Virus record (IMG/VR): IMGVR_UViG_3300045283_000397
Span: 26,565 to 90,564 of that record
Source of the DNA: a virus
Reading direction: 5' to 3' (one strand)
Length of the DNA: 64,000 bases
Position numbers and translations under genes: made by a program. Below the pieces are notes generated by a model, which was not told where the DNA came from, did no database searches, and was given only the letters and a program-made list of their open reading frames with translations. Shown here piece after piece: positions 12,029 through 63,560 of this stretch. The stretch's first letter is position 1. Every line of letters starts with the position of its first letter.

Positions 12029-12042
12029 TTTTCCCCACCCCC

Positions 12043-12071
12043 TTTACTTCCCCCCAAACCTCCTTTATACC
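12043..12071 (+). promoter_or_regulatory. sigma70-type promoter TTTACT-N17-TATACC
   Basis: Promoter family; leader contains GGTGA and GGAACTGGG before ATG 12105. Confidence 0.6.
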
Positions 12072-12104
12072 TAGCCCTAGGTGAACCGAGAAAGGAACTG
12101 GGAA

Positions 12105-12323
12105 ATGTCAAAGCGAACCAAATATACCGTTCACTGCCCTGACGGGCACATCGCGCGCTTCTCCGAGCAATGGCACGCGCGCGTTTTCGCCATTGCACTT
12201 TCTGAACGCATGCCGATGTACTGCATCGAAATGTCAGCGCCCGACGGCCTAATAGGCCAATACCGCGGCGGCGACACCACCCCCGAGTTCAAGCAGCACC
12301 ACATCAGTGGCCTTTTCCGCTAG
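12105..12323 (+). CDS. Hypothetical early protein
   Basis: AAAGGA RBS, MSKRTKYTVHCPDG. Confidence 0.6.
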   Translation: MSKRTKYTVHCPDGHIARFSEQWHARVFAIALSERMPMYCIEMSAPDGLIGQYRGGDTTPEFKQHHISGLFR

Positions 12324-12647
12324 CCCTAGCCCACCCCGCGCGCTATGCTAGCCCCGCAACCAAGGACACCCACGCCGATGCCCACCTACACTTTCACCGG
12401 CCCCGCCGTGCCCGCCATAGCCACGCGCGTAAGCGCGCCCAGCGAACCCGCAGCGCGCGACTTAGCCATGGCCGCGCGCCACACAGCCCAGCAGATGGCC
12501 AAGATCCAAGCGCGCCGGCCTTACCTTGGCGCTGGCCTAACCCTCATCAAGCAAGAGGATTAGCCGATGCTCTACGACAAGAAGTGGGATACCCCGCCAC
12601 CACCTTCCACCCCGACTGGACCACCACCTAACAGAAGGAACTGGGCA

Positions 12648-13157
12648 ATGCTACCACGCTACCGCACCGCTTGCGAGCAACTAAACACCCAAGCCTTAGA
12701 GCTCTTGGCCGAGCGCTTCGACCTCCAGGCCACGTCGGACTCCAGCTACGATCTGCTCCGACCGATCAGCCACGCCGCCGCCACCGTAACCCTCCTGCGC
12801 GCCGGCTACACCCAAGACGCCGAGCTCCTGCTCGGACGCCCCATAACCCACTGCGCGCCCGCCCCCAACTCCCCGCTCCTCGTCTGCGGCACGGCCACCC
12901 TCCTCGCGCGCCTGGCGGCGCAACTACCCGCCGAGCGCGGGCCCACCCCCGGCACCAACAATACGCGCCTCTACGACCGGCTGCGCGTCCAATCGGTCGG
13001 GCCAGATGCCCGGCGGATTGGAATGCGATCTCTCGGCCGCGCGCGCTTACGCCCTGGCGTCACCGTCGGCCAGCTCCTGCGCCGCGGCATGTCGCGCCGC
13101 CGCCTTAGCGAGGCCGCGCGCCAGGGTTGGATCACCCTGGCCGAGCCCACAGCGTAA
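12648..13157 (+). CDS. Hypothetical protein with C-terminal GxTV...GWI domain
   Basis: AAGGAACTGGG leader; C-terminus RPGVTVGQLLRRGMSRRRLSEAARQGWI. Confidence 0.6.
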   Translation: MLPRYRTACEQLNTQALELLAERFDLQATSDSSYDLLRPISHAAATVTLLRAGYTQDAELLLGRPITHCAPAPNSPLLVCGTATLLARLAAQLPAERGPTPGTNNTRLYDRLRVQSVGPDARRIGMRSLGRARLRPGVTVGQLLRRGMSRRRLSEAARQGWITLAEPTA

Positions 13158-16659: not shown

Positions 16660-16854
16660 TCATTGGTCCTCCTCCAGCTCTACCTGGCGCGCCACCACCA
16701 CGGCCAGGGCGGAGCTCACGGTGCCCTCCATCTGCCAGCCGTGCAGATCGTGGCGGTTGACCATGAGCTTGAAGAGCGAGCGCCGCCCGCCCGAGCGCCG
16801 GCTCTCCCATATCTCGTAGGAGGGCCGCACCCGCGTCATCATGTATGTCGTCAT
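16660..16854 (-). CDS. Hypothetical protein
   Basis: AAAGGAACTAGG leader before ATG. Confidence 0.5.
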   Translation of the reverse strand: MTTYMMTRVRPSYEIWESRRSGGRRSLFKLMVNRHDLHGWQMEGTVSSALAVVVARQVELEEDQ

Positions 16855-16870
16855 GTCCTAGTTCCTTTCC

Positions 16871-18367
16871 TCAGTTGACATAAGCCAGCAGCTGCTGCGC
16901 CCGGGTGATGGCTACGTAGGCCAGGTTCTCTTCCTGGCGCTTCTGCCAGTCCTGCTTGGCCCAGGGGCTGGGGCACAAGCCCGACCGGTAGAGGTACACC
17001 CGGCCCCACTCGCGCCCCTTGGAGCGGTGGTAGGTGGCACAGGTGATGATGCGCTGGCCTTCGGCCGCGTCGGTGTCCGCGAACATAGTGTTAATGAAGG
17101 CCTGGACGTCGCAGACGTCCTTTTGGCCTTTATTAAGGACCGCCTGGCAGATCTCCACCAGCGTCTCGCACTTGTCCGCGACGGCTTCGGCCTTGACATC
17201 CTGGCCACGCGCCAGGTGCTTCTGCATCTCGCGCTCCCTGTAGATGTCCAGGCGATTGAGCAGCGCGTCGATGGTCTTGACCTTCCACCGCCCCGCCAGC
17301 TTTGCCAGGCCCTCGCCGATCGCGCGGCCTTCCACCTTGCAAGCCTTGCCCTGGCGGATCATCGAATAAGCTACCTGGATGAGCGGCGCGGTGTTGCGGC
17401 AGAGCACCGCGTCGCCGGCCCCGAGGTCCTCGGGCAGCGCCGGCAGCATAGCTACCTCGCCCTTGGCGGCGCCTTCGGCCGCCTCAATGTCCGGCACCAA
17501 GCGCTGGGCCTCGGCCACCACCGCGCGCGGGCAACGCCACGTCATGGTCAGCGGCATGGCCTGGGCCTGTAAGTCTTTGATCAGGTCGGTCAGCGCGTCG
17601 GCACCGGCGCCGGCAAAGCCCATGATGGCCTGGCGGTCGTCGCCCACCACCACCATGCGCCCGCTCCTCTTGAGAAACTTGCGCATCAGCGCCTGGCGCG
17701 TGCGGTTGGTGTCCTGGGCCTCGTCGAGGAAGATGAGGTCCTTACCGAATTTGACGCGGATGTTCTTGATGAGCGGGAACAGCACCATGTCGTCGAAGTC
17801 TACCACGTCGGTCTGCTCTAGCGAGGCCCGATAGATATACTGGGCGGCCTCCACGATCGCGTCCATGGCCGAAGTATCATCCAGCCCGTTCACGTCGTAG
17901 TGGTCGGCCAGCGCGTGCCAAGTCATGGCGTCGCCTATGGGGGAGTCGGTAAAGAAACCGACTCCCGCAACTTTGGCCAGGTGCACCAGTTGGCAAATCT
18001 GGGCCTCGTATTCGCGGTAGACGGCCTCGTTGCGCCCGCGCACTAGCAAGCGCACCTTGTTGTCGTCCACCTTGGGCTTGAACATGAACTTGACGAGCCC
18101 GAATCCTATGCTGTGCGTGGTGGCGGCCTGGGCCTGGCGCCAGTCCAACCCCATCTTGGCCAGCTTGCCCTTGATCTCCTCGGCGATGGCCTTGCCGAAG
18201 GCGCAGACCAGCACCTCGTGCCCGGGGAACTTCGCCAGATACGCGGCCACCCCGAGCAGGATTGTGTGCGTCTTGCCCGTGCCCGCGCGCGCCACCAGCG
18301 CCAGGTGGCTCACGCCTTCCACCAGTGCCCTTACGAAGTCCGCCTGCTGCTTGGTAGGGGTAGTCAT
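16871..18367 (-). CDS. UvrD/REP-family SF1 helicase
   Basis: ARAGTGKT, LDEAQD, VGDDRQAI, TWRCP, TYHRSKGREW, YVAITRA. Confidence 0.92.
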   Translation of the reverse strand: MTTPTKQQADFVRALVEGVSHLALVARAGTGKTHTILLGVAAYLAKFPGHEVLVCAFGKAIAEEIKGKLAKMGLDWRQAQAATTHSIGFGLVKFMFKPKVDDNKVRLLVRGRNEAVYREYEAQICQLVHLAKVAGVGFFTDSPIGDAMTWHALADHYDVNGLDDTSAMDAIVEAAQYIYRASLEQTDVVDFDDMVLFPLIKNIRVKFGKDLIFLDEAQDTNRTRQALMRKFLKRSGRMVVVGDDRQAIMGFAGAGADALTDLIKDLQAQAMPLTMTWRCPRAVVAEAQRLVPDIEAAEGAAKGEVAMLPALPEDLGAGDAVLCRNTAPLIQVAYSMIRQGKACKVEGRAIGEGLAKLAGRWKVKTIDALLNRLDIYREREMQKHLARGQDVKAEAVADKCETLVEICQAVLNKGQKDVCDVQAFINTMFADTDAAEGQRIITCATYHRSKGREWGRVYLYRSGLCPSPWAKQDWQKRQEENLAYVAITRAQQLLAYVN

Positions 18368-18395
18368 GGCCCAGTTCTCCTCTTCACCTAGCCCT

Positions 18396-18424
18396 AGTAT
18401 GCCCCTTCCAATCCCAGAAGTAAA
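18396..18424 (-). promoter_or_regulatory. sigma70-type promoter TTTACT-N17-CATACT
   Basis: Promoter family; leader CTAGGTGAA...GAACTGGG resembles the 12072-12104 leader. Confidence 0.6.
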
Positions 18425-18550
18425 GCCCCTTGCTTCATTTATTTTGCCCTATACGCGCGCCAAGCCATCACCGCCCACGCCCCCGCCAGCACCACCCCCG
18501 CGCCCGCGTAGAGCCACCAGCCGGCTAGGTCCTTCATCCTACAGACCTTT

Positions 18551-25487: not shown

Positions 25488-26123
25488 TTACTCGACCGCG
25501 ACGTATCCCTTCTCCACGTCCCAGCGCAGGCAGCCCAGCGCCACCGAGCGCCCGAGCTTCTCGCACAGCGTGGCGACCTTTATGCCGGTGCGGTAGGCGG
25601 CGAACCATTCGTGCGCCTTGGTGCCCTCGCGCTTGGGGTTGCCCTCCGCCAGAACGGTGATCTTGGCCTCGTCGCCGTAGGCCGGCGCGCGTCCGCGCCG
25701 CCCGCTTCCATTGCCTTCCTTCTTCGCCTTCTTAGCCTTGGCCATCTGGCCCTCCTTGCTTTCTGCCGGGGCCGGATATGCCTGCGGCGGTTCCTGCGGT
25801 ACAGTGGGTGGCTCGGCCGGGGTCACCCGCATGGCCTCGGCTTGGTCTTGTAACACCTCTTCGCAGAGGCGCTCGGCGCGCGGGTCGGCACGCAACCTAG
25901 CCAGGCCGGGGCTAATATCGTCCCCCCCGGCGCGGCGCTGGCCCTCCTTGTGGGCCTTCATGCTGCTGGCGATGGCCGCCAGCGACTTCTCGGCGTCGCT
26001 GCGGTCCTTGAAGCAGCGCCGCTCGCGATAGTGCGTCAATCCCGCGAGTTGCGCGTCGGCAACCAAAGTGTTGTAGGCGCGCAGCATCTGCTGGATGGTC
26101 ATCTCGCTATAGTCGGTCTTCAT
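25488..26123 (-). CDS. Hypothetical protein with C-terminal NPKR...WD..KG domain
   Basis: GAACTGGG leader; GNPKREGTKAHEWFAAYRTGIKV...LRWDVEKGYV. Confidence 0.65.
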   Translation of the reverse strand: MKTDYSEMTIQQMLRAYNTLVADAQLAGLTHYRERRCFKDRSDAEKSLAAIASSMKAHKEGQRRAGGDDISPGLARLRADPRAERLCEEVLQDQAEAMRVTPAEPPTVPQEPPQAYPAPAESKEGQMAKAKKAKKEGNGSGRRGRAPAYGDEAKITVLAEGNPKREGTKAHEWFAAYRTGIKVATLCEKLGRSVALGCLRWDVEKGYVAVE

Positions 26124-26205
26124 TGCCCAGTTCTCTCCTGATAGTGGTTTATTAGTATTCAACCTCTAACCCATCTCTTGGAGAATGTAAAGGGGGTCCG
26201 CGAAA

Positions 26206-29020: not shown

Positions 29021-30292
29021 CTAGGTTTCTACTACGGGAACATATTCCTTGGGAGTAAGACCAAAAGTCCAAGCCGCCGCCTCGTGCGCCTTGGTTATTT
29101 GGGGCGGGACACGTAAAAAATAATGTTTAAAACTGCCGTCGAGTTCGCGTGTCGAGTTAACTACCTCCAGCATTACAATGGGCTCGTCGAAGGGCAGCTC
29201 GCGCCGCCAGAGCGTGCCATAATTCTCATCATAGTCTAGCCGCTTGCCCCCGGCATCGCGGATATAGGCAGCGGCGCCTTTGATTTCGGCCTTGGGCCGA
29301 TACTGATCAATCATTACCCGACGGACCTCGGCATTTCGCTCCTTGTCCACAGCTTCTATGGTGATGGTTTCGGGTTTCTCGATAATTTGCGCAGGCACCC
29401 TAACGCCGTGCACCGCATAAATGGCCCAGCCATCTGGGTAAACGCAAGCCGGCCCTGTGAGTGAGTGCAGGTGACCGCGCTCATCTCGCATTAGTATGTG
29501 GTGACGCTCCGAGACCCAACAGATGTTCTGATGCGGCAAAGCCCAACCGGTACTCTGGGAGAGTTCCCACAACCCTGCCAATTTTTGAGTTTCTGCAACA
29601 AGGCCCAAAGTCTCATAAAAATAGCTATAAAAGGCTAACCAAGAAGCATCATGGGCTCCGTACACGCTGTCCCCCACGCTGGCCCACACGCTGTCCCGCA
29701 CGCTGGCCCACACGCTGTCCCGCACGCTGTCCCGCACGCTGTCCCCCACGCTGGCCCACACGCTGGCCCACACGCTGGCCCACACGCTGTCCCCCACGCT
29801 GGCCCACACGCTGTCCCGCACGCTGGCCCGCACGCTGTCCCCCACGCTGTCCCGCACGCTGTCCCGCACGCTGTCCCGCACGCTGGCCCGCACGCTGGCC
29901 CACACGCTGTCCCGCACGCTGGCCCGCACGCTGGCCCACACGCTGTCCCACACGCTGGCCCCCACGCTGGTCCCCACGCTGGTCCCCACGCTGTCCCGCA
30001 CGCTGGCCCACACGCTGGTCCCCACGCTGTCCCGCACGCTGTCCCCCACGCTGTCCCATTCCCGGTCAAGGATGATGGCCCGGGTTAACCCCTGTGAAAG
30101 CGGCGACCCACACCAAATTATCTTGCGCGGGGGTTTAAGTCCCCCTTGTCGATAAGTCTCGTAAATAGCGGCCTCGGCCCTGGGACGATTGGCCACATCA
30201 GTACAGAGTCCAATTTTGGTCCAGTGCTCTACAAACTCGGGGAAGCGCGCAATTTGTTTGGGCGTGAGGCGCTCGATCTTAGTCCGCGACAT
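29021..30292 (-). CDS. DUF6745-like protein with internal tetrapeptide repeat
   Basis: GHLHSLTGPA..YPDG..IYAVHGVRVP, NAEVRRVMI, VVNST.E.DGS...YFLRVPP. Confidence 0.8.
   Translation of the reverse strand: MSRTKIERLTPKQIARFPEFVEHWTKIGLCTDVANRPRAEAAIYETYRQGGLKPPRKIIWCGSPLSQGLTRAIILDREWDSVGDSVRDSVGTSVWASVRDSVGTSVGTSVGASVWDSVWASVRASVRDSVWASVRASVRDSVRDSVRDSVGDSVRASVRDSVWASVGDSVWASVWASVWASVGDSVRDSVRDSVWASVRDSVWASVGDSVYGAHDASWLAFYSYFYETLGLVAETQKLAGLWELSQSTGWALPHQNICWVSERHHILMRDERGHLHSLTGPACVYPDGWAIYAVHGVRVPAQIIEKPETITIEAVDKERNAEVRRVMIDQYRPKAEIKGAAAYIRDAGGKRLDYDENYGTLWRRELPFDEPIVMLEVVNSTRELDGSFKHYFLRVPPQITKAHEAAAWTFGLTPKEYVPVVET
29663..30058. repeat. 33 x 12-bp tandem repeat, CACGCT plus variable hexamer
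   Basis: Encodes SV(R/W/G)(D/A/T) units within the DUF6745-like gene. Confidence 0.95.
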
Positions 30293-30648: not shown

Positions 30649-32151
30649 CTATACCCAAGGACACGCTAGCTGCCCGCCCGCGGCCACCAGCGTTAACCGT
30701 TCACGCGCTCGCGTTACCGCCACGTACCAAACACGGCGCTCAGGATCAGGATTGGTCTCCATTTCCTGATGCGTCCTTTTTGCCATATCCGATAAAACGA
30801 TTACGTATTCTGCTTCACTGCCCTTGGACCCGTGTATGGTGCTGATGCGCACCCTAGGCTTGGCGCGTAGCCGCTCGCCGCGCCTGCGCATCGCCAAGAT
30901 GTAGCCCACGTCCTGCTGCGGGAGGCGATCGAGCGCGACGTGCCAGATCGCGTCGACAAGCAGGCCGCCCTTCTTCTTGAGATCATCCAGCGTGACCGGG
31001 GGGGCCTGCTCGTCGAATGCGCTGAGCGATTTGTATCCGCGCGCTACCCCGCGCCCCACGCTCATGGCCTGGTACACTGCGCGCGCTGCTTCCACCGCCA
31101 CCGCGCCCCCGGCCCTTAGCCTCTCCCAGTCAGATATTACCTGCAAGACTTCGGTGCTTACCGAAGGCTTTTCATTGCGGTGATAGTACACGCCGGCTTC
31201 GCGCAGCGCGGGCGCCACCACATCGTTGAGCACATAGGCGTTGCGCGCCAGCACCAGCACGTCCGGCCCCTCGGTCAGCCCCACGTCGAAGGCGACCTCG
31301 TGCGCCACCGCGCCCTCCGCTGCGCGCGGCGCCCACTGCTTAGGCCTGCGGTGCGCTACTGGGGAGATGAGTGTATTGGCGAGGATCTGTACAGCGCGCG
31401 GCACGCGGTAGGATTGGCCCAGCACGCGCACGTCCCCGGCCATGTCCACTAGATGGGACGAGTCTGCTCCGGCCCATTGGAAGATTGCCTGGTCGTCATC
31501 CCCGGCCACCACGCAACGCTTGGCGCCCTGCCTGAGGCGATCGAACACATCCCACTGTAATTTCGGGAGGTCTTGACATTCATCTCCTATTAATGTCTCC
31601 AGGCGCAGCTGGAGGCCCTCCCTGAGGAATTGCTGGAGCATGTCGGTGTAGTCCATCAGCCCCCGCGCACGCTTGAATTCGCGCAACGCGCGCGCCACTC
31701 GCTCCACCTCGTGCCACGGCAGGCCATCATCAAACTGATCGAACTGCTCTCGCAGTTTGACCATCTTGATTCTTGCCAAGTTTTCCATAAAGATGATGCG
31801 GTCGCCGGGCTCGAAGCCCGCCTGGAGCCCGTCTTCCGACCACCCCCCGGTCACCCTTATGCCGGCCCAGTCGGCGAATTCCCTGGTCGCCTTGCGGTCC
31901 ATCACCTCGCCCGGGCGCAGGCCCAGCAGCCGGAAGCACAAGGAGTGCAGCGTGCGGAACCAGGGCAGCTGCGCGCGCGCCAGCCCGAACTTCTCGCTCG
32001 CGCGCGTCACGGCCTCCTCGGCCGCGCGCCGCGTGAACGAGAGGTAGGCGATGCGCTCGGGTGCCACGCCGCGCGCCAGCTCTGCGTCTACGATGTCGAG
32101 TAGCGACGTAGTCTTGCCGCAGCCGGGGGGGCCAAGGATAATCTCGGGCAT
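30649..32151 (-). CDS. Second UvrD/REP-family SF1 helicase
   Basis: GPPGCGKT, DECQD, AGDDDQAIFQW, QSYR, STIHGSKGSE, YVAVTRA. Confidence 0.92.
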   Translation of the reverse strand: MPEIILGPPGCGKTTSLLDIVDAELARGVAPERIAYLSFTRRAAEEAVTRASEKFGLARAQLPWFRTLHSLCFRLLGLRPGEVMDRKATREFADWAGIRVTGGWSEDGLQAGFEPGDRIIFMENLARIKMVKLREQFDQFDDGLPWHEVERVARALREFKRARGLMDYTDMLQQFLREGLQLRLETLIGDECQDLPKLQWDVFDRLRQGAKRCVVAGDDDQAIFQWAGADSSHLVDMAGDVRVLGQSYRVPRAVQILANTLISPVAHRRPKQWAPRAAEGAVAHEVAFDVGLTEGPDVLVLARNAYVLNDVVAPALREAGVYYHRNEKPSVSTEVLQVISDWERLRAGGAVAVEAARAVYQAMSVGRGVARGYKSLSAFDEQAPPVTLDDLKKKGGLLVDAIWHVALDRLPQQDVGYILAMRRRGERLRAKPRVRISTIHGSKGSEAEYVIVLSDMAKRTHQEMETNPDPERRVWYVAVTRARERLTLVAAGGQLACPWV

Positions 32152-32540
32152 CATGTGAATAGGCGCAAGATCATGGTTTTGGCATTTTCTAAGGTAGTGG
32201 CTTTGACGCAGGCTGGGTGGTGGCGCCAAGTGCCGAAACTGGAGCAATCGCCCGCGATAAAGACCGGGATGCCATTGGCGATGGCGATGCCTACCTCTAC
32301 CAGGGCGCCACGCAACTCGTCTCCCGGTTCTGCGTAGACGATGAGCGCGCGCGAGGTTTCCACGTCGTGCTGATCTACCATCCAGAAAATATGAAAATCC
32401 TCGGGCGTAGCGGACTCTTCATGCGCGGCTTGATCGAACCAGCGCGCGTGTAGATCTATGCCATGTTGCTTCCATTCGTAGCGCAAATCACACAAGCGCG
32501 GCGCATATTTAATCTTACTGGCGATATAGACACGGATCAT
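32151..32540 (-). CDS. Nucleoside 2-deoxyribosyltransferase-like protein
   Basis: VYIAS...D..DV......GALVEVGIAIANGIPV. Confidence 0.65.
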   Translation of the reverse strand: MIRVYIASKIKYAPRLCDLRYEWKQHGIDLHARWFDQAAHEESATPEDFHIFWMVDQHDVETSRALIVYAEPGDELRGALVEVGIAIANGIPVFIAGDCSSFGTWRHHPACVKATTLENAKTMILRLFT

Positions 32541-32874
32541 TGCATTTGCTCCAGCTGCTCCGCCACCGCCCTTAGCGCCGCGGCCCACTCCCCCGGCGCA
32601 CCGCGCGCCAGCCGGCGCCCGAGCGAGCGCCCGGGCCATCTCTCCGGCTACGCGCGCCATCGCGTTATGGGCGCGCGCCAGCTGCTGCTCACGGTCAGTC
32701 AAGCACTTCGACGACTAGCGGGGGAAAGTGCCCGAAAATTTTGTCGAAGCCGTATTCGTACGGCTCCTCGCGCATTTGCTGTTGCAATGCGGCGATGGCG
32801 CGCTCATTGCGGCGCGGCGGCTTATATTCAGAAGTCTCGATGTCATTTTCCATAGCATGGTTCCTAGATAGAGT

Positions 32875-32951
32875 GCCTCCCCGGCACGCGTGGGTGAGAC
32901 GGCGAGCGCGCAGCGGAACTGGGCGAACTACGGCGCGCTGGCCGGGGAGGC
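32875..32951 (-). ncRNA. Putative structured regulatory RNA (two-loop, C4-like architecture)
   Basis: 11-bp closing stem, internal 7-bp stem whose loop carries CCCAGUUCC, second small loop CUCACCC; intergenic downstream of the SSB gene; strand inferred from operon direction. Confidence 0.5.
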
Positions 32952-32953
32952 GC

Positions 32954-32979
32954 ATGAAAGCCCCCCTTGGGGCTTTCAT
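32954..32979. terminator. Perfect hairpin, possible terminator or processing site
   Basis: ATGAAAGCCCC-CCTT-GGGGCTTTCAT. Confidence 0.5.
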
Positions 32980-33132
32980 ATCAGGTGTTGAGTGCCGGGC
33001 CTCGTGGGCTTCTGACTTCCCGGTTGTCGCGTTTTTGTCGCATCCCACTTGAAGCAAGTCCTTCCTTTGCCGCGTCGAACTTGCAAAGCCACAGCGTCCA
33101 CCGAAGGACGGGGTCGACACGGCTTGAACCAA

Positions 33133-33987
33133 TTAGAACGGCGGATCGCTGGCCGCCGCGCCCGTGTCGGCCTCGGGCGCCGCCTGCTTTTCGCCCGACT
33201 CCACTGCGGCGCACAGCGCCCGGCCCAGCGCGATGTCCTCGGCCGTCTGGACCCAGCCCGCGCGCTGGGGGTCGAGCAGGTACCACTCGCCCAGCTTGTT
33301 GGTTCTGTATCGGGTTTTTAACCGATACAGATGGTGAAATGCGGCGGATTGCTTCCCGGGGGCCAGGGGGTGGTTGACGATGTCGCTATTCCAGCCCTTG
33401 GCCACCGTGTGGCCGGTGCCCGAGAATGGGATTACGTAGGGCAGCCGGCCGCCCGCGTCGGTGTGCACCAGGCCCGTCACTTGGCGCGTCTCGACCACTA
33501 TGGTGCCCTTGGGCATCACCCAGGCCTGGCGCTGGTTGCCGCGGTCGTCCGTTATGGTGCCCAGCTTGGCCTCCGGCGGCCGGTGCGTGTGGCGCGCGAC
33601 GAAACCGGAGCCGCGCTGCGCGCCCCATTCGATCCAGAGGCCATGGGCAAAGTGGCAGGGCTGGAAAATGACCCCGTCGTCTCCAGAGACGACTGGGTCA
33701 TCGGCGTTGCGCAGCCAAATACACCCCGCCTCGGCGCCCTCGATATAGTTCTCGTTCTTTTTGAGCACCTGCGGGCTCTGGGCCTGGAGCACGTAGATGA
33801 GCGGCACCAGGTTATCGGCCTGGTCGGTGCTCACGCCGCGCCCGGCGTCCTTCTCCATCTCGGCCATCAACGCGGCGGGCAAGGCACCCTCGGCCTGGGG
33901 TACCACGGCGCCTTGGCCGGGGCCGGGGGGTTTATTGATCTCCTCGGTGGTCGGCACAGGATCTTTGGTACGACTTAGGATAGACAT
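33133..33987 (-). CDS. Phage single-stranded DNA-binding/annealing protein
   Basis: LQAQSPQV...YIEGAEAG, acidic/aromatic C-terminus SDPPF; replication context. Confidence 0.65.
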   Translation of the reverse strand: MSILSRTKDPVPTTEEINKPPGPGQGAVVPQAEGALPAALMAEMEKDAGRGVSTDQADNLVPLIYVLQAQSPQVLKKNENYIEGAEAGCIWLRNADDPVVSGDDGVIFQPCHFAHGLWIEWGAQRGSGFVARHTHRPPEAKLGTITDDRGNQRQAWVMPKGTIVVETRQVTGLVHTDAGGRLPYVIPFSGTGHTVAKGWNSDIVNHPLAPGKQSAAFHHLYRLKTRYRTNKLGEWYLLDPQRAGWVQTAEDIALGRALCAAVESGEKQAAPEADTGAAASDPPF

Positions 33988-33991
33988 AGGC

Positions 33992-34198
33992 TTAGGCTCC
34001 CTTCATTTGTTCGGAGATAACTTCGGCCGCCACCTTCTTGATGTAAGCCGACCAGCGATTGCGATCGTCCCAAGGCGTTAGGGCAAAGGGTGGGTAGCCG
34101 CTCTTCGCCATGTCCTGATAGCCGTCATTGGCGCGCTGAATGATGGCGTCGGCTATCTGCTCGGGTGTTTTGGTTTGGAGCTTGGGGCGCTTGGTCAT
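33992..34198 (-). CDS. Hypothetical protein
   Basis: Coupled ORF with AAGGAG RBS. Confidence 0.5.
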   Translation of the reverse strand: MTKRPKLQTKTPEQIADAIIQRANDGYQDMAKSGYPPFALTPWDDRNRWSAYIKKVAAEVISEQMKGA

Positions 34199-34797
34199 GT
34201 CTTGCGCTCCTTGATCTCCACCTGGTGGCCGTGGGTGGCGCCCAGCGCTTCCATCTCCGCGCCGCTAAGGCCGCGGTGAGCTTCCACCTGCTCGCGGAAC
34301 CAGGCGGTGAGAGTGTTCCACTGCACGGTGCGCTTAAGGGAAGCGATGAGGCCCGCCTCGCCCAGCTTTTGGACCAGTGTACGGGCCTCGTCGATCTCTT
34401 CGCGGTTAAACTCTACCGAGACCACGCACTTGATGATGTCGCCGCCTTGCTTGGCTTCGAGCAGGTCGAAGGCCGCCTCGCGCTTCTCGCTGGGCCACTC
34501 CGCCGCGATGTTGGCCCTATAGTAGGGCTTTAGGCGCGCGTCGTAGGCGGGCAGGTTGCCGGCCGCCGGCAGCCCGACTTGGTCGGTGCCCGCGGCCATC
34601 AGCAGCGCCGGCAGCGTATCGAACCTTCTTTTGTCGATGCGCGCCTGGGTCTCCTTGCGGCGTGCTTCCAGGTCGGCGAGCACTTGCTGGTCGTCGCGCT
34701 GGGCGGCGAGCTCGGCGCGCACCGTTTCTAGGGTAGCCGGCGCAATGGCCAGGGGGCGCTCGGCGTCTACAAGTACGGCGGTGGGTATACCATTCAT
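34195..34797 (-). CDS. Conserved phage replication-module protein
   Basis: LPALL...AFDLLE...GDIIK...VQWNTLTAWFRE; GGAACTGGG leader. Confidence 0.65.
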   Translation of the reverse strand: MNGIPTAVLVDAERPLAIAPATLETVRAELAAQRDDQQVLADLEARRKETQARIDKRRFDTLPALLMAAGTDQVGLPAAGNLPAYDARLKPYYRANIAAEWPSEKREAAFDLLEAKQGGDIIKCVVSVEFNREEIDEARTLVQKLGEAGLIASLKRTVQWNTLTAWFREQVEAHRGLSGAEMEALGATHGHQVEIKERKT

Positions 34798-35072
34798 AAG
34801 CTGTCTCCCAGTTCCATACACGGGGGCGAGGGGGCTGAGGCAGGAAATCCCCCGGCGCAGCCTGCCCAGGTACTTGGCCACATCTTGCGATGCCGCCCCC
34901 GTGCAAGGAGTATAGTGGCGCTAGGCGCAGGCGCGGTAAAGTGCTATTTTTGCTTTGTCGCGCCGGCCGCGCGGGCTAAGCTATTGGAGTAAACGGTGAG
35001 TTACCAACCATAGGAATCTCAGTTCATAGTTTCCCGGCGCCTCGCGGATTTTCAGGGGCTAGGAGAACGAAA

Positions 35073-35942
35073 ATGATCAGTCATCCGAATCGCGGCACGA
35101 TCACCAAGGCCATCGTGACTAAGTTGCTCAAGATCGTGGACGCTGGTCTTGTGAAAGGCGTCGGTAACGCCAAGCCGGGCAAAATGTGTATCGAGGCGGC
35201 AGTCTGTTACGCGCTCGGCGAGCCGCATGGCGATAGGCCGTCCTGTGTCGCTCCGGTTCTCCGTGAACTCAAAATTCGTCTGAACGATAGCAATTGGTCC
35301 TCGGAAGAAGCCAGGGCCAAGGGCCTGCGCCGGCTCGGCGTGGCCCAATTGGGCAGCGCTGGCGCGCTGGACGAAAAAGAGTTCCGGCGCCGTGTTTTCG
35401 ATTACGCCCTGCGGTCATCCGTTCCGGCCGCCCTGCGGTCTGCGGCTACAATCCAGAAGGGCCACAAGCACAAGGCAGCGCTGCTTGATGCAGCGGCGCG
35501 GTGCGAGAAGGAAGGAACAAGGGAAGCGGCTTTGCAGGCTAAGAACGCCGCCGCCGCCGCCGCCTACGCTGCCGCCGCCGACGCCGCCGCCGCCGCCCAC
35601 TTTGCCGCCGCCGCCCACGCTGCCGCCGCCCACGCTGCCGCCAACGCCGCCTACGCTGCCGCCGCTGCCGCCGCCGCCCACGCTGCCGCCGCCTACGTTG
35701 CCGCCAACGCCGCCTACGCTGCCGCCGCTGCCGCCGCCGCCTACGCTGCCGCCGCTGCCGCCAACGCCGCCTACGCTGCCGCCGCCTACGTTGCCGCCCA
35801 CGCTGCCGCCGCCTACGTTGCCGCCGCCCGAAAGGCCGCTCGCGACACGTCGCTCGCGGCCTATGCAGAGGCGGTCGTGCAAATCCTCGTCAGTATGGAT
35901 GCGCCCGGTTGCAAATGGCTTGAACTAACGGAAGCGGCTTAA
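35073..35942 (+). CDS. Phage protein with Ala-rich low-complexity repeat
   Basis: AGGAG RBS; MCIEAAV...HGDRPSCVAPV...LND, then (A)nY/H repeats. Confidence 0.8.
   Translation: MISHPNRGTITKAIVTKLLKIVDAGLVKGVGNAKPGKMCIEAAVCYALGEPHGDRPSCVAPVLRELKIRLNDSNWSSEEARAKGLRRLGVAQLGSAGALDEKEFRRRVFDYALRSSVPAALRSAATIQKGHKHKAALLDAAARCEKEGTREAALQAKNAAAAAAYAAAADAAAAAHFAAAAHAAAAHAAANAAYAAAAAAAAHAAAAYVAANAAYAAAAAAAAYAAAAAANAAYAAAAYVAAHAAAAYVAAARKAARDTSLAAYAEAVVQILVSMDAPGCKWLELTEAA
35545..35828. repeat. GCC-rich imperfect tandem repeat
   Basis: Recurrent GCCGCC(T/C)ACGCTGCC and GCCAACGCCGCCTACGCT units. Confidence 0.85.
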
Positions 35943-48201: not shown

Positions 48202-48384
48202 GTGTGGAAGCTGCTACAGTGGGGCATCATCTTCGGTGTCTGCTGGCACAATGCCGTTTACCATTGGACCCCGAACGGTTATTTGGCGGCAATAATAGCG
48301 TTCGCAACCGCTTTTTTTACAACACTATTGTGGTGCCGCCTAGTTGATCTAATACGGTATGGCCGCTCTGGCCGGGGGAGATGA
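48202..48384 (+). CDS. Small antisense membrane protein (superinfection-exclusion candidate)
   Basis: GGAG RBS, two hydrophobic helices, convergent on the last ejection gene. Confidence 0.5.
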   Translation: MWKLLQWGIIFGVCWHNAVYHWTPNGYLAAIIAFATAFFTTLLWCRLVDLIRYGRSGRGR

Positions 48385-50289
48385 GGACTGCGGCGGCGGC
48401 AGCGATGCAGGCGCCTTATAATCGAGCAATGCGCGAGCCATTATTGCTGCTCTTACAGCATCATCCCGTAAAGGTACGTGTTGCACTGCTTCGTTAGTCA
48501 ACCACCAGCGCGTAAGCGGATTATTATATGCTCCGCGTACTACAGGACGTGCTACTAGTGGCCCTAATTCTTCGCCTAATAGAGTTCCTAAAACGGCATG
48601 TTCAACCCCTCCTCCAGGGTGAGTACCACCAGCTGTTGCGCCTAACCCCGCGCCCAAGGCACGTCCGATACCTTCCACAGTAAAACGACGCGCTGTCTCT
48701 GAATTTGGCGGTTCACCCAGTAGTGCTACCCCTGGAGTAGAGAGAGAAGAGAAATCGTCTTGTCCACGCACCACGGCGCGCTTGCCATAAACCGCTTTGG
48801 CGGCCGAATCGAGCTGGGCCGGGGTGATAATGCTGTTAGCTGCTGCTGGCCCAGCTGAGGCCGCCGCGCGCTCCAGCACCAGCGCATTGCGATAATCACG
48901 CCTTGTTTGTTGCCAAGCACCTAAGTCGGCCGGATTGCGGTTCGCTATTGAGCGCTCCATGGTATCATCTAGTGCATCCACAATAGCATGTAAGCCGCGC
49001 GCCTTGGCGGGGTCGCTGGCTTCACGCGCCGCGGTGCTCAGCCGAGACCTCATCAACTGATAATCTGTGCCATTAACACTGAACGGGGGTATGTTGGGCA
49101 TGCCCGGTGCATTTATGGGTCTGCCTGGAAAGAATGCGTTCATAACATGGTCCGCCGCCCCATTCACAGCGGCAACTGTCTGTGGATCATTTACCCCAGG
49201 CAAAGCATTTATCTCATCACGTGCAGCCTGTAGATCACGAAACGTAGTGTGGTCGAACTGCGCTGTGTTCCTTGCCTGGAGGCCATCGAATTGCCTGCCC
49301 ACGTTGGTTAGGTGAGTGTCGATAATCCCGCCTTGACCCCGCAGCGGCAGCCCGGGGGGTGCCGTTACATTACCACGTCGTAATGCTGCATCGGTGAATT
49401 GGCGTAACTTATCGTCATAGGCACCGGGCTGCATTTGTGATTCAAAGGCTTTAAGGTTGCGCCCCCCGGAAAGGTCCCCCGGGCTGACCGCCACTCTCTC
49501 TCCGCGCAGCGCGGCGGCCATGGCGGAGCGTCCCTGTTCGATATTTAGGGGCGTAATCATGCGTCCCGCGACGCTGGGTGCGGCCAACATGGCGGCTATC
49601 TGGGCTGGCTCGGACCAGCGGCTGTCGGGGCCCACAATATCGCGTGCGCCCTCTTTAGCGGCAGCGGGTGCCAGCACATAGCGCGTTGCGTTGGCTAGCG
49701 GGCGCGCTATACCCATACCCCCCGCACCCCCGGGGGCCAATACCAGGCCGGGGGTCAGTTCGCCCGCGGTATAGCCAATACGCCCTGCCGCACCTTGGGG
49801 GGCATAGGGCTGCCCAAACACCTTATTGGTCTGACCTTTAATTTCTTCAAGCGTGGGCATGCCCGAGAATGGGGTGAGCGCCTGCTGTATTTGGCCCCGT
49901 ACTGAATTTGGATCCAGCGGCATAGGTTCCGGTTTCCAGGGCTGGCGCCCGGTGCCCCCGGTGCGGAACCAATCGACCATTTCCTGACCAGCACGCTTTC
50001 CCAGTTCGCGTGCTTCACCCGGGATAGCCCCAATCTGTTCAATACCGGAGCGCAAACCCGCGCCATAACCCTTAGCAAAATCGGCATGGGGGTCAACCGC
50101 TCCAGGCATGGTAATAAATTTTTGTAGTTCCTCCGTACTCATATTTTCCAAATTCAACCCAGATTGCGCCGCAAGCGAGCGCGTAGGCGCGCCCGGGAGC
50201 GTAAAGCCCGCTACCGAGGGGGCGGAGGGGTGCTGCTGGGCGTTGATAATCGCCTGGAGCTCGGCGTCGCTAAGGTTGCTGAGGTCCAC
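48349..50289 (-). CDS. DNA ejection/internal virion protein
   Basis: LSDAEL repeats, Ala/Gly-rich helical; last of the ejection-gene set. Confidence 0.65.
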   Translation of the reverse strand: MDLSNLSDAELQAIINAQQHPSAPSVAGFTLPGAPTRSLAAQSGLNLENMSTEELQKFITMPGAVDPHADFAKGYGAGLRSGIEQIGAIPGEARELGKRAGQEMVDWFRTGGTGRQPWKPEPMPLDPNSVRGQIQQALTPFSGMPTLEEIKGQTNKVFGQPYAPQGAAGRIGYTAGELTPGLVLAPGGAGGMGIARPLANATRYVLAPAAAKEGARDIVGPDSRWSEPAQIAAMLAAPSVAGRMITPLNIEQGRSAMAAALRGERVAVSPGDLSGGRNLKAFESQMQPGAYDDKLRQFTDAALRRGNVTAPPGLPLRGQGGIIDTHLTNVGRQFDGLQARNTAQFDHTTFRDLQAARDEINALPGVNDPQTVAAVNGAADHVMNAFFPGRPINAPGMPNIPPFSVNGTDYQLMRSRLSTAAREASDPAKARGLHAIVDALDDTMERSIANRNPADLGAWQQTRRDYRNALVLERAAASAGPAAANSIITPAQLDSAAKAVYGKRAVVRGQDDFSSLSTPGVALLGEPPNSETARRFTVEGIGRALGAGLGATAGGTHPGGGVEHAVLGTLLGEELGPLVARPVVRGAYNNPLTRWWLTNEAVQHVPLRDDAVRAAIMARALLDYKAPASLPPPQSSSPPARAAIPY

Positions 50290-54038: not shown

Positions 54039-54044
54039 GTTTCT

Positions 54045-54130
54045 GCCTGTGCTGTAGGACATGGTTACTTCGCACCTTTGGTAGATGCAATGGGCTTCGG
54101 CCCAGTCACCATTCCCGCCGCTTGCCAGGC
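54045..54130 (+). ncRNA. Y RNA 1 (short Yrl-type, no tRNA-like arms)
   Basis: Terminal stem GCCTG/CAGGC, GTGCTGTAG...GGTTACTTC block shared with RNA 2, ATGGT/ACCAT helix, UUCG hairpin. Confidence 0.75.
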
Positions 54131-54131
54131 G

Positions 54132-54278
54132 CCTAAACGGAGACGGTGCTGTAGGACAGGGTTACTTCGCATCAGGAGCGAGAGGTCGGTGGTTCGAATC
54201 CATCCGGGGAAAAATCCCCGTAGCTCAGCGGTAGAGCGCTTACGTACCCGGTTCGCCTCTTACCCGTTTCCGCTTAGG
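54132..54278 (+). ncRNA. yrlA: YrlA-type Y RNA (circularly permuted tRNA mimic)
   Basis: Stem CGGAGACGG/CCGTTTCCG; T arm GGTGG-TTCGAAT-CCATC, loop-closed acceptor-like stem CGGGGA-AAAA-TCCCCG, then D arm GCTC-AGCGGTA-GAGC; directly upstream of a TROVE gene. Confidence 0.88.
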
Positions 54279-54313
54279 TCGCCGCACAGGCCCCGCAACC
54301 AACGGAGGCCGCC

Positions 54314-55642
54314 ATGGCTCGTTTGAATGTCGCGTCTCGCACTCCCCTGGCTTTCACCTACGAAGGCGGCAAGGCCGTTACCGGCCTCACGCCTATCCAA
54401 CAACTTCGCCGCTCGGTCCTTTCCTGCTTGCTTTGGGAAGATGAGTTCTACGAGGACGGCGAGGAAATCGGAGCGCGCATCGTTCGCGAGGCTAAGGCAG
54501 TATCGTTGGACGACTTGGCGTCGCTGGCGCTGGAAGCTCGCAATCGGTTCTATCTGCGGCACGTTCCGCTCCTGCTCGCCGTGGTGCTCGCCGGCCGCGT
54601 AAATGGTCATGCACATCCGCAGGGGGTCTCGGATGTGGTCGCGGGAGTTATCGGCCGCGTTGATGAACTCGCCGAGATTGTTGCGCTCTACTGGAAGCTC
54701 AATCCGAACAAGATGCTCTCGCGCCAGATGCGCAAGGGTTTGGCGCGCGCGTTCGCCAAGTTCGACCGCTACCAGTTCGGCAAGTACGATTTCGATAAGG
54801 GCAAGGCGGTTAAGCTCCGCGACGTTCTCAAGCTCGCGCGCCCGAAGCCGGCCGATGCCGAGCGTTCGGCACTCTACAAGGCCATTAAGGAAGGCACCGT
54901 CGAGGCCCCGGATACTTGGGAAACCGCGCTCATGCGCGGCGCCGACAAAAAGGAGACGTTTACCCGCCTGATTGCGGAGGAACGGCTTGGCTACCTCGCC
55001 TTGCTCCGCAATCTGCGCAAGATGCAGGAGGTCGGCGTTGACCCTGCAGTGATTCGCGATGCCATCGTGGCCCGCAAGGGCGCGCGGTTCGTGTGGCCGT
55101 TCCGCTACGTCGCGGCGGCGCGCGCGGCCCCGCAGTTTGAACCGGCGCTTGACCAAGCGCTGATCGAGGCCATCGGCGAAATGCCGGTGCTGCCGGGAAA
55201 GACGTTCGTGCTAGTGGATGTGTCGGGCTCGATGGATGCGAAGATGTCGGGCAAATCCGAGTTGATGCGTATCGACGCTGCGGCAACGCTTGCCTCGATC
55301 ATCCCCGGCGACCTGCGCGTATTCACGTTCTCGCAAGCGCTGGTCGAGGTTCCGCCGCGCCGCGGCATGGCGGGCGTGGATGCGATCAAACAATCGCAGC
55401 CGCACGCCTCAACTTATCTCGGCGCGGCGGTTGCTAAACTCAACACGCTGCCGCATGACCGGCTGATCGTGATTACCGACGAGCAGTCGCACGACGCCGT
55501 GCCCGATCCGGTTACGCCGCACGCGTACTTGATCAATGTGGCATCGAATCAGAACGGTGTCGGCTATCGCCGCTGGACGCATATCGACGGCTTTGCTGAT
55601 TCGGTGCTGCGGTTTATTCGCGAGATCGAAAACAACGGCTGA
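54314..55642 (+). CDS. rsr: Ro60/Rsr TROVE-domain RNA-binding protein with vWA domain
   Basis: LRRSVLSCLLWEDEFYE, FDRYQFGKY...LRDVL...PKP, TWE, ALLRNLR, MIDAS DVSGSM, ITDEQ; GGAGG RBS. Confidence 0.93.
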   Translation: MARLNVASRTPLAFTYEGGKAVTGLTPIQQLRRSVLSCLLWEDEFYEDGEEIGARIVREAKAVSLDDLASLALEARNRFYLRHVPLLLAVVLAGRVNGHAHPQGVSDVVAGVIGRVDELAEIVALYWKLNPNKMLSRQMRKGLARAFAKFDRYQFGKYDFDKGKAVKLRDVLKLARPKPADAERSALYKAIKEGTVEAPDTWETALMRGADKKETFTRLIAEERLGYLALLRNLRKMQEVGVDPAVIRDAIVARKGARFVWPFRYVAAARAAPQFEPALDQALIEAIGEMPVLPGKTFVLVDVSGSMDAKMSGKSELMRIDAAATLASIIPGDLRVFTFSQALVEVPPRRGMAGVDAIKQSQPHASTYLGAAVAKLNTLPHDRLIVITDEQSHDAVPDPVTPHAYLINVASNQNGVGYRRWTHIDGFADSVLRFIREIENNG

Positions 55643-63219: not shown

Positions 63220-63238
63220 CGCGTTTCTCCTTTAGGGG

Positions 63239-63267
63239 TTTACTTCCGAGAGAACCTAGTATATGAT
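63239..63267 (+). promoter_or_regulatory. Promoter TTTACT-N17-TATGAT
   Basis: Promoter family; leader carries GGAACTGGG before ATG 63297. Confidence 0.65.
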
Positions 63268-63296
63268 ACTAGGACTAGGCAGAAGGAACTGGGAAC

Positions 63297-63560
63297 ATGA
63301 TTAAACTAAGCACAGCCCAACAGCGCACTTTAGATGCTATCCGCGCCCATGGCGGCATGGCCACGCCCGAAGGAGGCGGCTGGTGGAAGGGCTTGGATAA
63401 CGAGCGGCTCTACATCGAAGCCAGCAGTAACGGAGTATTACAGGGCGAAAAGGTGGCCGTGGGGACTACAACCATCTATTCGTTGGAGCGCCGCGGCCTT
63501 CTTCAACGCCGCATGTTTTCCAAGCACGCCTGGAAAGACAGCTATGTCATCTCTAAATAA
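63297..63560 (+). CDS. Antisense moron, winged-helix-like protein
   Basis: KLSTAQQRTL...TTIYSLERRGLL. Confidence 0.65.
   Translation: MIKLSTAQQRTLDAIRAHGGMATPEGGGWWKGLDNERLYIEASSNGVLQGEKVAVGTTTIYSLERRGLLQRRMFSKHAWKDSYVISK

Follow-up and report, generated by a model that had tools for sequence, protein, structure and literature searches.

A conserved 77-nucleotide structured element in the replication operon of a soil phage, a candidate C4-like anti-start-site RNA

The intergenic gap behind a Pam3 gp34-like gene of a soil phage holds a conserved three-way-junction element, probably a small regulatory RNA, whose two loops match or complement two boxes that lie in front of start codons elsewhere in the genome. 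On the basis of sequence comparison, the reading that we prefer, to which we assign a probability of about 0.4, is that the element may be a C4-like anti-start-site RNA that is excised from the operon transcript and acts on dispersed early genes.

The phage is represented by an IMG/VR record of 90,564 bp with 127-bp direct terminal repeats and 61.5% GC, and the window analyzed here, a stretch of 64,000 nt, comprises bases 26565-90564 of that record. The sole public run in which the phage was found is a soil metagenome, probably the sample from which the record was assembled; when the soil metagenome contigs were compared with the phage, no variants were found at the element or at the motif sites described below. 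The window encodes terminase, tail, and lysis genes together with an extensive block for replication and nucleotide metabolism (primase, DNA polymerase, three helicases, thymidylate synthase, and glucosyltransferase). No integrase, ant, or icd gene was seen in what appears to be the replication module of a lytic phage, and immunity genes are absent from the phage. All of the genes around the element are encoded on the - strand, and in operon direction they are arranged as follows.

34195-34797, - strand: DUF7307 gene, the first gene of the element's own operon
Between the DUF7307 gene and the gp34-like gene, - strand: 68-aa ORF
33133-33987, - strand: Pam3 gp34-like gene (PF23977)
Between the gp34-like gene and the 52-aa ORF: intergenic gap of 274 nt that holds the element
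32695-32853, - strand: 52-aa ORF, downstream of the element in operon direction
Between the 52-aa ORF and the UvrD-like helicase gene, - strand: deoxyribosyltransferase-like gene
30649-32247, - strand: UvrD-like helicase gene

The gene upstream of the element had been called an SSB gene in the first-pass annotation of this DNA. Its position is as described, whereas its product is identified as a Pam3 gp34-like protein (PF23977), for which an SSB-like nature is plausible and short of established. An AlphaFold model of the protein (pLDDT 76) gave no Foldseek match at E<=0.001; the weak matches were all to OB-fold DNA binders, and homologues of the protein are annotated as ssDNA-binding in a few phage records. 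Two further features of the surrounding DNA were observed. A 12-nt tandem repeat, AGCGTG[CGT]GGG[AC]C, of approximately 28 units occupies 29700-30040 (- strand) inside a 423-aa ORF (29021-30292), and the contigs of the public run break at this repeat. Divergent from the replication operon is a 289-aa ORF (35073-35942, + strand) with the start site CTAGGAGAACGAAAATG, the C-terminal half of which is a long Ala-rich repeat (AAAAYAAAAH-like).

The fold first described for the element at 32875-32951 is reproduced, with a perfect outer stem of 11 bp and an inner stem of 7 bp. Its parts, assigned provisionally to the - strand, are listed here.

32875-32951, - strand (provisional, the operon strand): 77-nt three-way-junction element, composed of stem P1 and two hairpins
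32875-32885: 5' arm of P1, GCCTCCCCGGC, which pairs with 32941-32951 (perfect 11 bp)
32941-32951: 3' arm of P1, GCCGGGGAGGC
32892-32898: loop A, in hairpin A, GGGTGAG on the + strand and CUCACCC on the - strand, which matches or complements leader box 1, GGTGA
32905-32911 with 32933-32939: 7-bp inner stem of hairpin B (7+2 bp)
32916-32930: loop B, 15 nt, GAACTGGGCGAACTA on the + strand and UAGUUCGCCCAGUUC on the - strand, the start-site motif or its complement
32954-32979: companion hairpin HT, which always adjoins P1 and is joined to it by a conserved CAT (+) or AUG (-)

Perfect long-range stems of at least 10 bp number 23 in this 61% GC genome, so a stem or a fold alone proves nothing. No promoter-like or terminator-like site was found on either strand from 32400 to 33400, and in a test for intrinsic terminators the tails that follow P1 and HT were not U-rich, with no T-tract on either strand in any of the three sequences compared below. 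Several known identities were tried and rejected. ARAGORN and the Rfam tRNA model called no tRNA or tmRNA gene in the window or in the related contigs L059-L061, the best match to any Rfam family (Atu_C8, E=1.3) rested only on generic stems, and the Y RNA encoded at the phage's Ro60 locus, 21 kb from the element, is unlike it in sequence. At that locus, upstream of the Ro60-like gene (54314-55642), two RNAs at 54040-54300 (+ strand) contain a shared block and a permuted tRNA-like module, GGTGGTTCGAATCCATCC ... GTAGCTCAGCGGTAGAGC, and are unrelated to the element.

Near relatives of the phage are absent from INPHARED, and a protein scan of IMG/VR with the gp34-like protein gave nothing near. 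A scan of IMG/VR with an alignment of gp34-like proteins yielded 57 loci at identities of no more than 49%, and neither the motif nor the loop was present in any of the 57. In metagenomes, where a first scan gave no match, a degenerate pattern built on a peptide conserved in the gp34-like protein retrieved three contigs (L059, L060, and L061) with approximately 84% nucleotide identity to the window, of which L059 and L061 are the same in this region and L060 is distinct. Conservation rests on three distinct sequences (window, L060, and L059), and the relatives' contigs, of 2-3.4 kb, end before any leader. Among these phages the intergenic DNA is unalignable and rearranged while the flanking genes can be aligned, and the element forms a conserved island. 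In L060 the sole alignable piece of the interval 32696-33131 is 645-717, which corresponds to 32870-32947 of the window; the element itself occupies 650-720 in L060 (71 nt) and 1876-1947 in L059 (72 nt), and L059 keeps it though the neighboring DNA is replaced by a 480-nt AT-rich HNH-endonuclease insert.

The relatives had been proposed as a check on the element, and in them the structure is kept, P1 covaries, the inner stems differ yet pair, and the loops are nearly invariant. Compensatory changes from C-G to U-A are found at three pairs of P1 in L059. The stem of hairpin B reads AGCGCGC, GGCGCGG, and GGCGAT in the window, L060, and L059, respectively, each with its complement, and that of hairpin A also differs (CGT/ACG or CCAT/ATGG, 3-4 bp) and is paired throughout. 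All 15 of the 15 nucleotides of loop B are invariant across the three sequences, and loop A is GGGTGAG, GAGTGAG, and GGGTGAG. The companion hairpin HT has a different sequence in each of the three, including a compensatory C-G to U-A change. Because RNAalifold applied to MAFFT alignments misplaced the short hairpin A, only the P1 pairs are usable as aligned, and the helices were tabulated by script. The covariation of P1, the paired inner stems, and the invariant loops together give the pattern of a structured nucleic acid with sequence-specific loop contacts. Protein coding was rejected as an explanation: the open frame across the element differs (..VVRPVP.. in the window and ..SSPSS.. in L059 and L060) while the nucleotides are identical, so the conservation is not protein-coding.

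The DNA beside the element, 3' of it in operon direction, looks like an insertion hotspot. In L059 it contains an HNH ORF within the AT-rich insert (1401-1870, - strand), in L060 a tRNA-Val-like remnant (520-640, - strand; T arm GGGTTCGATTCCC) that was likewise uncalled by the tRNA searches, and in the window the 52-aa ORF. Several distant relatives, with gp34-like proteins 36-49% identical to that of the phage, have a structure with an 8-13-bp stem within approximately 130 nt after the gp34-like gene and on the strand of that gene; none of these structures is similar to the element in sequence. They are located as follows.

L002: 10869-10920
L053: 10912-10972
L017: 10879-10951
L004: 10897-10957
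Also present in L007/L008/L011 and L047/L049

The loop pattern had no match in IMG/VR and one chance match in GTDB genomes, inside a Bacilli coding region, and the start-site pattern gave only single chance matches in IMG/VR. When the distant relatives were searched for an analogous pair of loop and start site (by 9-mer sharing and by k-mers near starts), only noise was obtained.

The motif to which loop B is related, GAACTGGG, had been described as lying before many start codons. It occurs 11 times in the window compared with 1.67 copies expected, a number reached by 0 of 100 shuffles, and the positions given for it in the first-pass annotation were all correct. Every copy in the genome is within the part covered by the window, the first 26.5 kb being free of it. 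Five of them end 2-3 nt 5' of an ATG (12105, 12648, 63297, 18367, and 26123) that opens a GC3-supported ORF. The GAACTAGG variant was also found where it had been reported; it ends 2-3 nt before ATG 16854, which opens an ORF of coding-type GC3. For the copy at 34807 the distance to the ATG (34797) is 9 nt, and five of the eleven copies are away from start sites. The sites of interest are listed by position.

12080-12107, + strand: leader with GGTGA box 1 (12080-12084), motif (12095-12102), and ATG 12105, behind TTTACT-N17-TATACC
12638-12650, + strand: start site with motif and ATG 12648, no promoter; best predicted pairing with the - strand loop, 10 bp
16852-16864, - strand: start site with the GAACTAGG variant and ATG 16854
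18365-18388, - strand: helicase leader with box 1 (18384-18388), motif (18370-18377), and ATG 18367, behind TTTACT-N17-CATACT
26121-26133, - strand: start site with motif and ATG 26123, for a 211-aa protein
34795-34814, - strand: motif 9 nt before ATG 34797 (DUF7307), the GGG of the motif being part of the Shine-Dalgarno sequence GGGAGA
50000-50019, - strand: third two-box copy, GGTGAAG-N5-GAACTGGG, inside a 646-aa tail-region ORF (48349-50289)
63286-63299, + strand: start site with motif and ATG 63297, behind TTTACT-N17-TATGAT

The purines immediately 5' of the motif (AAGGA, GAGGA, and AGGAGA) constitute a Shine-Dalgarno (SD) sequence, so the motif amounts to an SD-plus-spacer module, approximately RRGGAACTGGGNNATG; ordinary AGGAG-type SD sites are present in other genes of the phage. 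A TTTAC-N17 promoter had been assigned to five of the genes. It is clear at 12105, 18367, and 63297, probable at ∼34945 (- strand), poor at 26123, and absent at 12648 and 16854. The fixed distance between motif and ATG, together with the promoterless sites at 12648 and 16854, points to a constraint on the message and not to a DNA operator. We conclude that the start-site motif is real and that its fixed ATG spacing favors a translational role.

The leaders at 12105, 18367, and 63297 are paralogous cassettes, in which TTTACT-N17-(TATACC/CATACT/TATGAT) is followed by CTAG-containing palindromes and then by the module. These palindromes, for example CCTAGTATATGATACTAGG and CCTAGCCCTAGG, follow or overlap the early promoters at 12040-12080, 18390-18430 (- strand), and 63225-63285 and are candidate repressor operators. 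Within the leaders the upstream CCUAG can pair with CUGGG of the motif, an arrangement that leaves the SD sequence in a loop. The 5' leader of the element's own operon contains an 85-nt structure (34819-34903, - strand) with a perfect 10-bp closing stem, CACGGGGGCG...CGCCCCCGTG, situated between the TTTACC promoter at ∼34945 and the GGAACTGGG motif before ATG 34797. At the copy within 50000-50019 (- strand), a GTG located 5 nt downstream opens an alternative frame of 79 codons, the gene status of which GC3 does not decide.

The second loop, CUCACCC, had been matched to GGUGA at 12080-12084 and 18384-18388, and both the positions and the order of the boxes proved to be right. In the genome, GGTGA is found within 30 nt upstream of GAACT[AG]GG four times, compared with 0.40 expected, and the element is one of the four; the others are the leaders at 12080 and 18388 and the ORF-internal site at 50019-50000. 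Because the leaders at 12080 and 18388 are paralogous, the independent two-box count is three, which is still unlikely by chance. The observed count (4 versus 0.40, including the element) makes a real link between loops and leaders likely, and together with the invariance of the loops it makes a functional link fairly probable. For loop B on the - strand, the predicted duplexes were -26.5 (12648), -23.9 (18367), -21.7 (34797), and -18.9 kcal/mol (63297), against a background at 392 candidate start sites of -11.8 ± 3.7 kcal/mol. The 9-bp loop-leader matches stand only about 2-4 SD from this GC-rich background, and the contact with box 1 is of only 5 nt, its two carrier leaders being paralogous promoter cassettes.

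A mechanism that would account for the element as an anti-start-site RNA can be outlined. A structured RNA, encoded on the operon (-) strand downstream of the gp34-like gene and ahead of the helicase genes, would be transcribed within a polycistronic early/replication mRNA and excised from it, possibly by RNase P at the conserved junction between U and G located 5' of P1, and HT would remain with the gp34-like message upstream, whose 3' end it would protect. The 15-nt loop UAGUUCGCCCAGUUC would then form a 9-10-nt duplex with GGAACUGGG(C), the SD-spacer motif set 2-3 nt ahead of the start codon in five or more scattered early genes and, as a variant, in one further gene, and the 7-nt loop CUCACCC would add a contact of 5 nt with GGUGA at the 5' end of two leaders. 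Ribosome binding would thereby be blocked, and translation of the gene set would be lowered after transcription of the operon. In this model the choice of strand, RNA processing, in vivo pairing, and repression with its timing are inferences, and the "early-to-middle switch" suggested in the first-pass annotation is pure conjecture.

The element may instead act in cis on its own mRNA, as a structure between cistrons that serves processing or stability (cut by RNase P, III, or E, or bound by the upstream gp34-like protein) and whose loops resemble the start-site motif by chance or through shared composition. This explanation, which we consider unlikely, is consistent with the invariable location of the element 3' of a gp34-like gene and with the long closing-stem structures that follow this gene in several distant relatives, even though those structures are dissimilar in sequence and of unproven homology. 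The phage often uses GGAAC-type SD contexts, so the resemblance could be partly compositional. Five out of eleven GAACTGGG copies also lie away from start sites. A stability hairpin, however, has no need of 15 invariant loop bases, and two loops would seldom match two boxes by chance with strand and order both correct, given the count of 4 versus 0.40.

The next alternative depends on which strand is transcribed, for which the evidence is mixed; we favor the - strand over the + strand at about 60:40. If the + strand were transcribed, or the element served as a protein-binding site, it would be a sense mimic, with loops GGGUGAG and GAACUGGGCGAACUA that copy the leader boxes and titrate or recruit a phage or host translational regulator able to bind these boxes in the early mRNAs, much as CsrB/RsmZ mimic CsrA sites. 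The loops do carry the leader sequences in the 5'-3' order of the leaders, and GAACU occurs twice in loop B and GRGUG twice (in the 5' flank and in loop A), which suggests repeated protein sites. In HT a stem position that forms G.U (L059) or U.G (L060) on the + strand becomes an A.C mismatch on the - strand, so that these pairs exist only on the + strand, and the segments that include HT fold better on the + strand by 5.5-7.4 kcal/mol. Hairpin B of L060 contains one G.U pair on the + strand, though a bulged A offers the - strand another way to pair. The G.U pairs that terminate P1 on its outer side were rejected as support for the + strand, being equally well explained by a conserved CACCC tail on the - strand.

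Against a + strand decoy, no promoter-like site for that strand was seen within 32400-33400. With no promoter or terminator within 500 nt, a - strand transcript would arise by read-through, whereas a + strand transcript would require an unseen promoter; the DNA upstream on the + strand is unrelated among the three phages, and the + strand is antisense to all of the flanking genes. The element proper is about equally stable on either strand, with minimum free energies (MFE) of -44.2/-40.9, -40.1/-40.6, and -36.6/-35.3 kcal/mol in the three sequences. The - strand MFE structure has the identical architecture of P1, hairpin B, and hairpin A in all three, but that of the + strand is inconsistent between relatives. 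No candidate binding protein was identified, and the GGA typical of CsrA sites is absent from loop B of L059 (CGAACUGGG) and from loop A. We regard a decoy as rather improbable. Read on the - strand, P1 of L059 and L060 is preceded by U, starts with G, and is then followed by A-C-C, and these flanks resemble the RNase P context of tRNA precursors; the corresponding features of the window are C-1, an A-C-U tail, and two extra bases between U and P1. The tRNA-like remnant of L060 is also on the - strand, just downstream of the element.

A DNA-level site, with a cruciform or a hairpin in single-stranded DNA serving replication or recombination (a priming signal, an origin element, or an endonuclease target), would suit the neighboring primase, polymerase, and helicase genes, the adjoining DNA that differs in each relative (52-aa ORF, HNH endonuclease, and tRNA-like remnant), and perfect stems that fold on either strand, but it is very improbable, as the matched motif is fixed relative to start codons and promoterless at two sites, which implicates RNA, and neither iterons nor an AT-rich unwinding region lie beside the element in the window.

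To our knowledge, the known phage antisense RNAs act on single genes, mostly in the immunity circuits of temperate phages. That a lytic soil phage employs one C4-like RNA from its replication operon to silence at least five early genes is a proposal that we advance only tentatively; if true, it would describe a multi-target anti-ribosome-binding-site regulon without sequence relation to the C4/CI families, and it would mean that a riboregulator can govern timing in lytic phages. The components are few and sharply defined (an RNA of 77 nt and, at a constant spacing from the ATG, a target of 8-10 nt), and the short predicted interaction lends itself to direct tests with reporters and compensatory mutations; the pair could also serve as a portable translational switch. 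Whether or not the antisense reading holds, the element is a new structured motif of RNA or DNA, conserved and invariant in its loops.

The closest known counterparts are the C4 antisense RNA of phages P1 and P7 and the CI RNA of phage P4. In layout the element resembles C4 RNA, which is ∼77 nt long, closed by its own ends, embedded in an operon, and equipped with two target loops (PMC5320573). One loop of C4 covers the ribosome-binding site and the other contacts an upstream box (PMC5320573), and the RNA is released from a longer transcript by RNase P (PMC5320573; RNase P substrate list, PMC3378863). The element likewise measures 77 nt (71 and 72 nt in the relatives) and on the - strand has an end-closed stem with two stem-loops; if this strand is read, 9-10 nt could pair with GGAACUGGG(C) at six start sites and 5 nt with GGUGA in two leaders. 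The two differ in their targets and surroundings. C4 has one target, located downstream in its own immunity operon in a temperate phage (icd/ant), whereas the element is found among gp34-like, deoxyribosyltransferase-like, and helicase genes and its candidate targets are dispersed over 51 kb. The antisense reading put forward in the first-pass annotation is supported in part, by a conserved structured unit, a two-box match, and a C4-like layout, but it lacks a match to the Rfam C4 families. The comparison with Rfam that had been suggested gave no match at gathering score across the window, and the C4-type models (C4, c4-2, and c4-a1b1) gave none at E<=10 in 32700-33200 and none at E<=5 in L059 and L060. 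By the tests run, the element would work like C4 in layout, on the reading to which we give the probability stated at the outset, yet it is no member of a C4 family.

Other phage and bacterial regulators resemble the element in part. Two small RNAs of phages, sar of P22 and OOP of lambda, base-pair around the translation start of a phage gene. Each is encoded in cis as an overlapping transcript with full complementarity to its one target, whereas the element is structured, a candidate for action in trans, and predicted to make short loop contacts. The decoys CsrB, RsmY, and RsmZ have many hairpin loops with GGA and bind CsrA/RsmA. The likeness to them holds for the + strand reading only, in that the hairpin loops would repeat the sequence of the regulated ribosome-binding sites, and the element differs from such decoys in having two loops with the core GAACUGGG and in the loss of GGA in L059. 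RegA of phage T4 is a protein with a loose AU-rich site. As with RegA, dispersed early messages here share a recognition sequence at the start site and might be shut down together, but the motif, sharply defined and GC-rich, would be read by an RNA; if the preferred reading is true, the silencing of several early genes at one common start-site module would make this RNA the counterpart of T4 RegA-type protein regulators.
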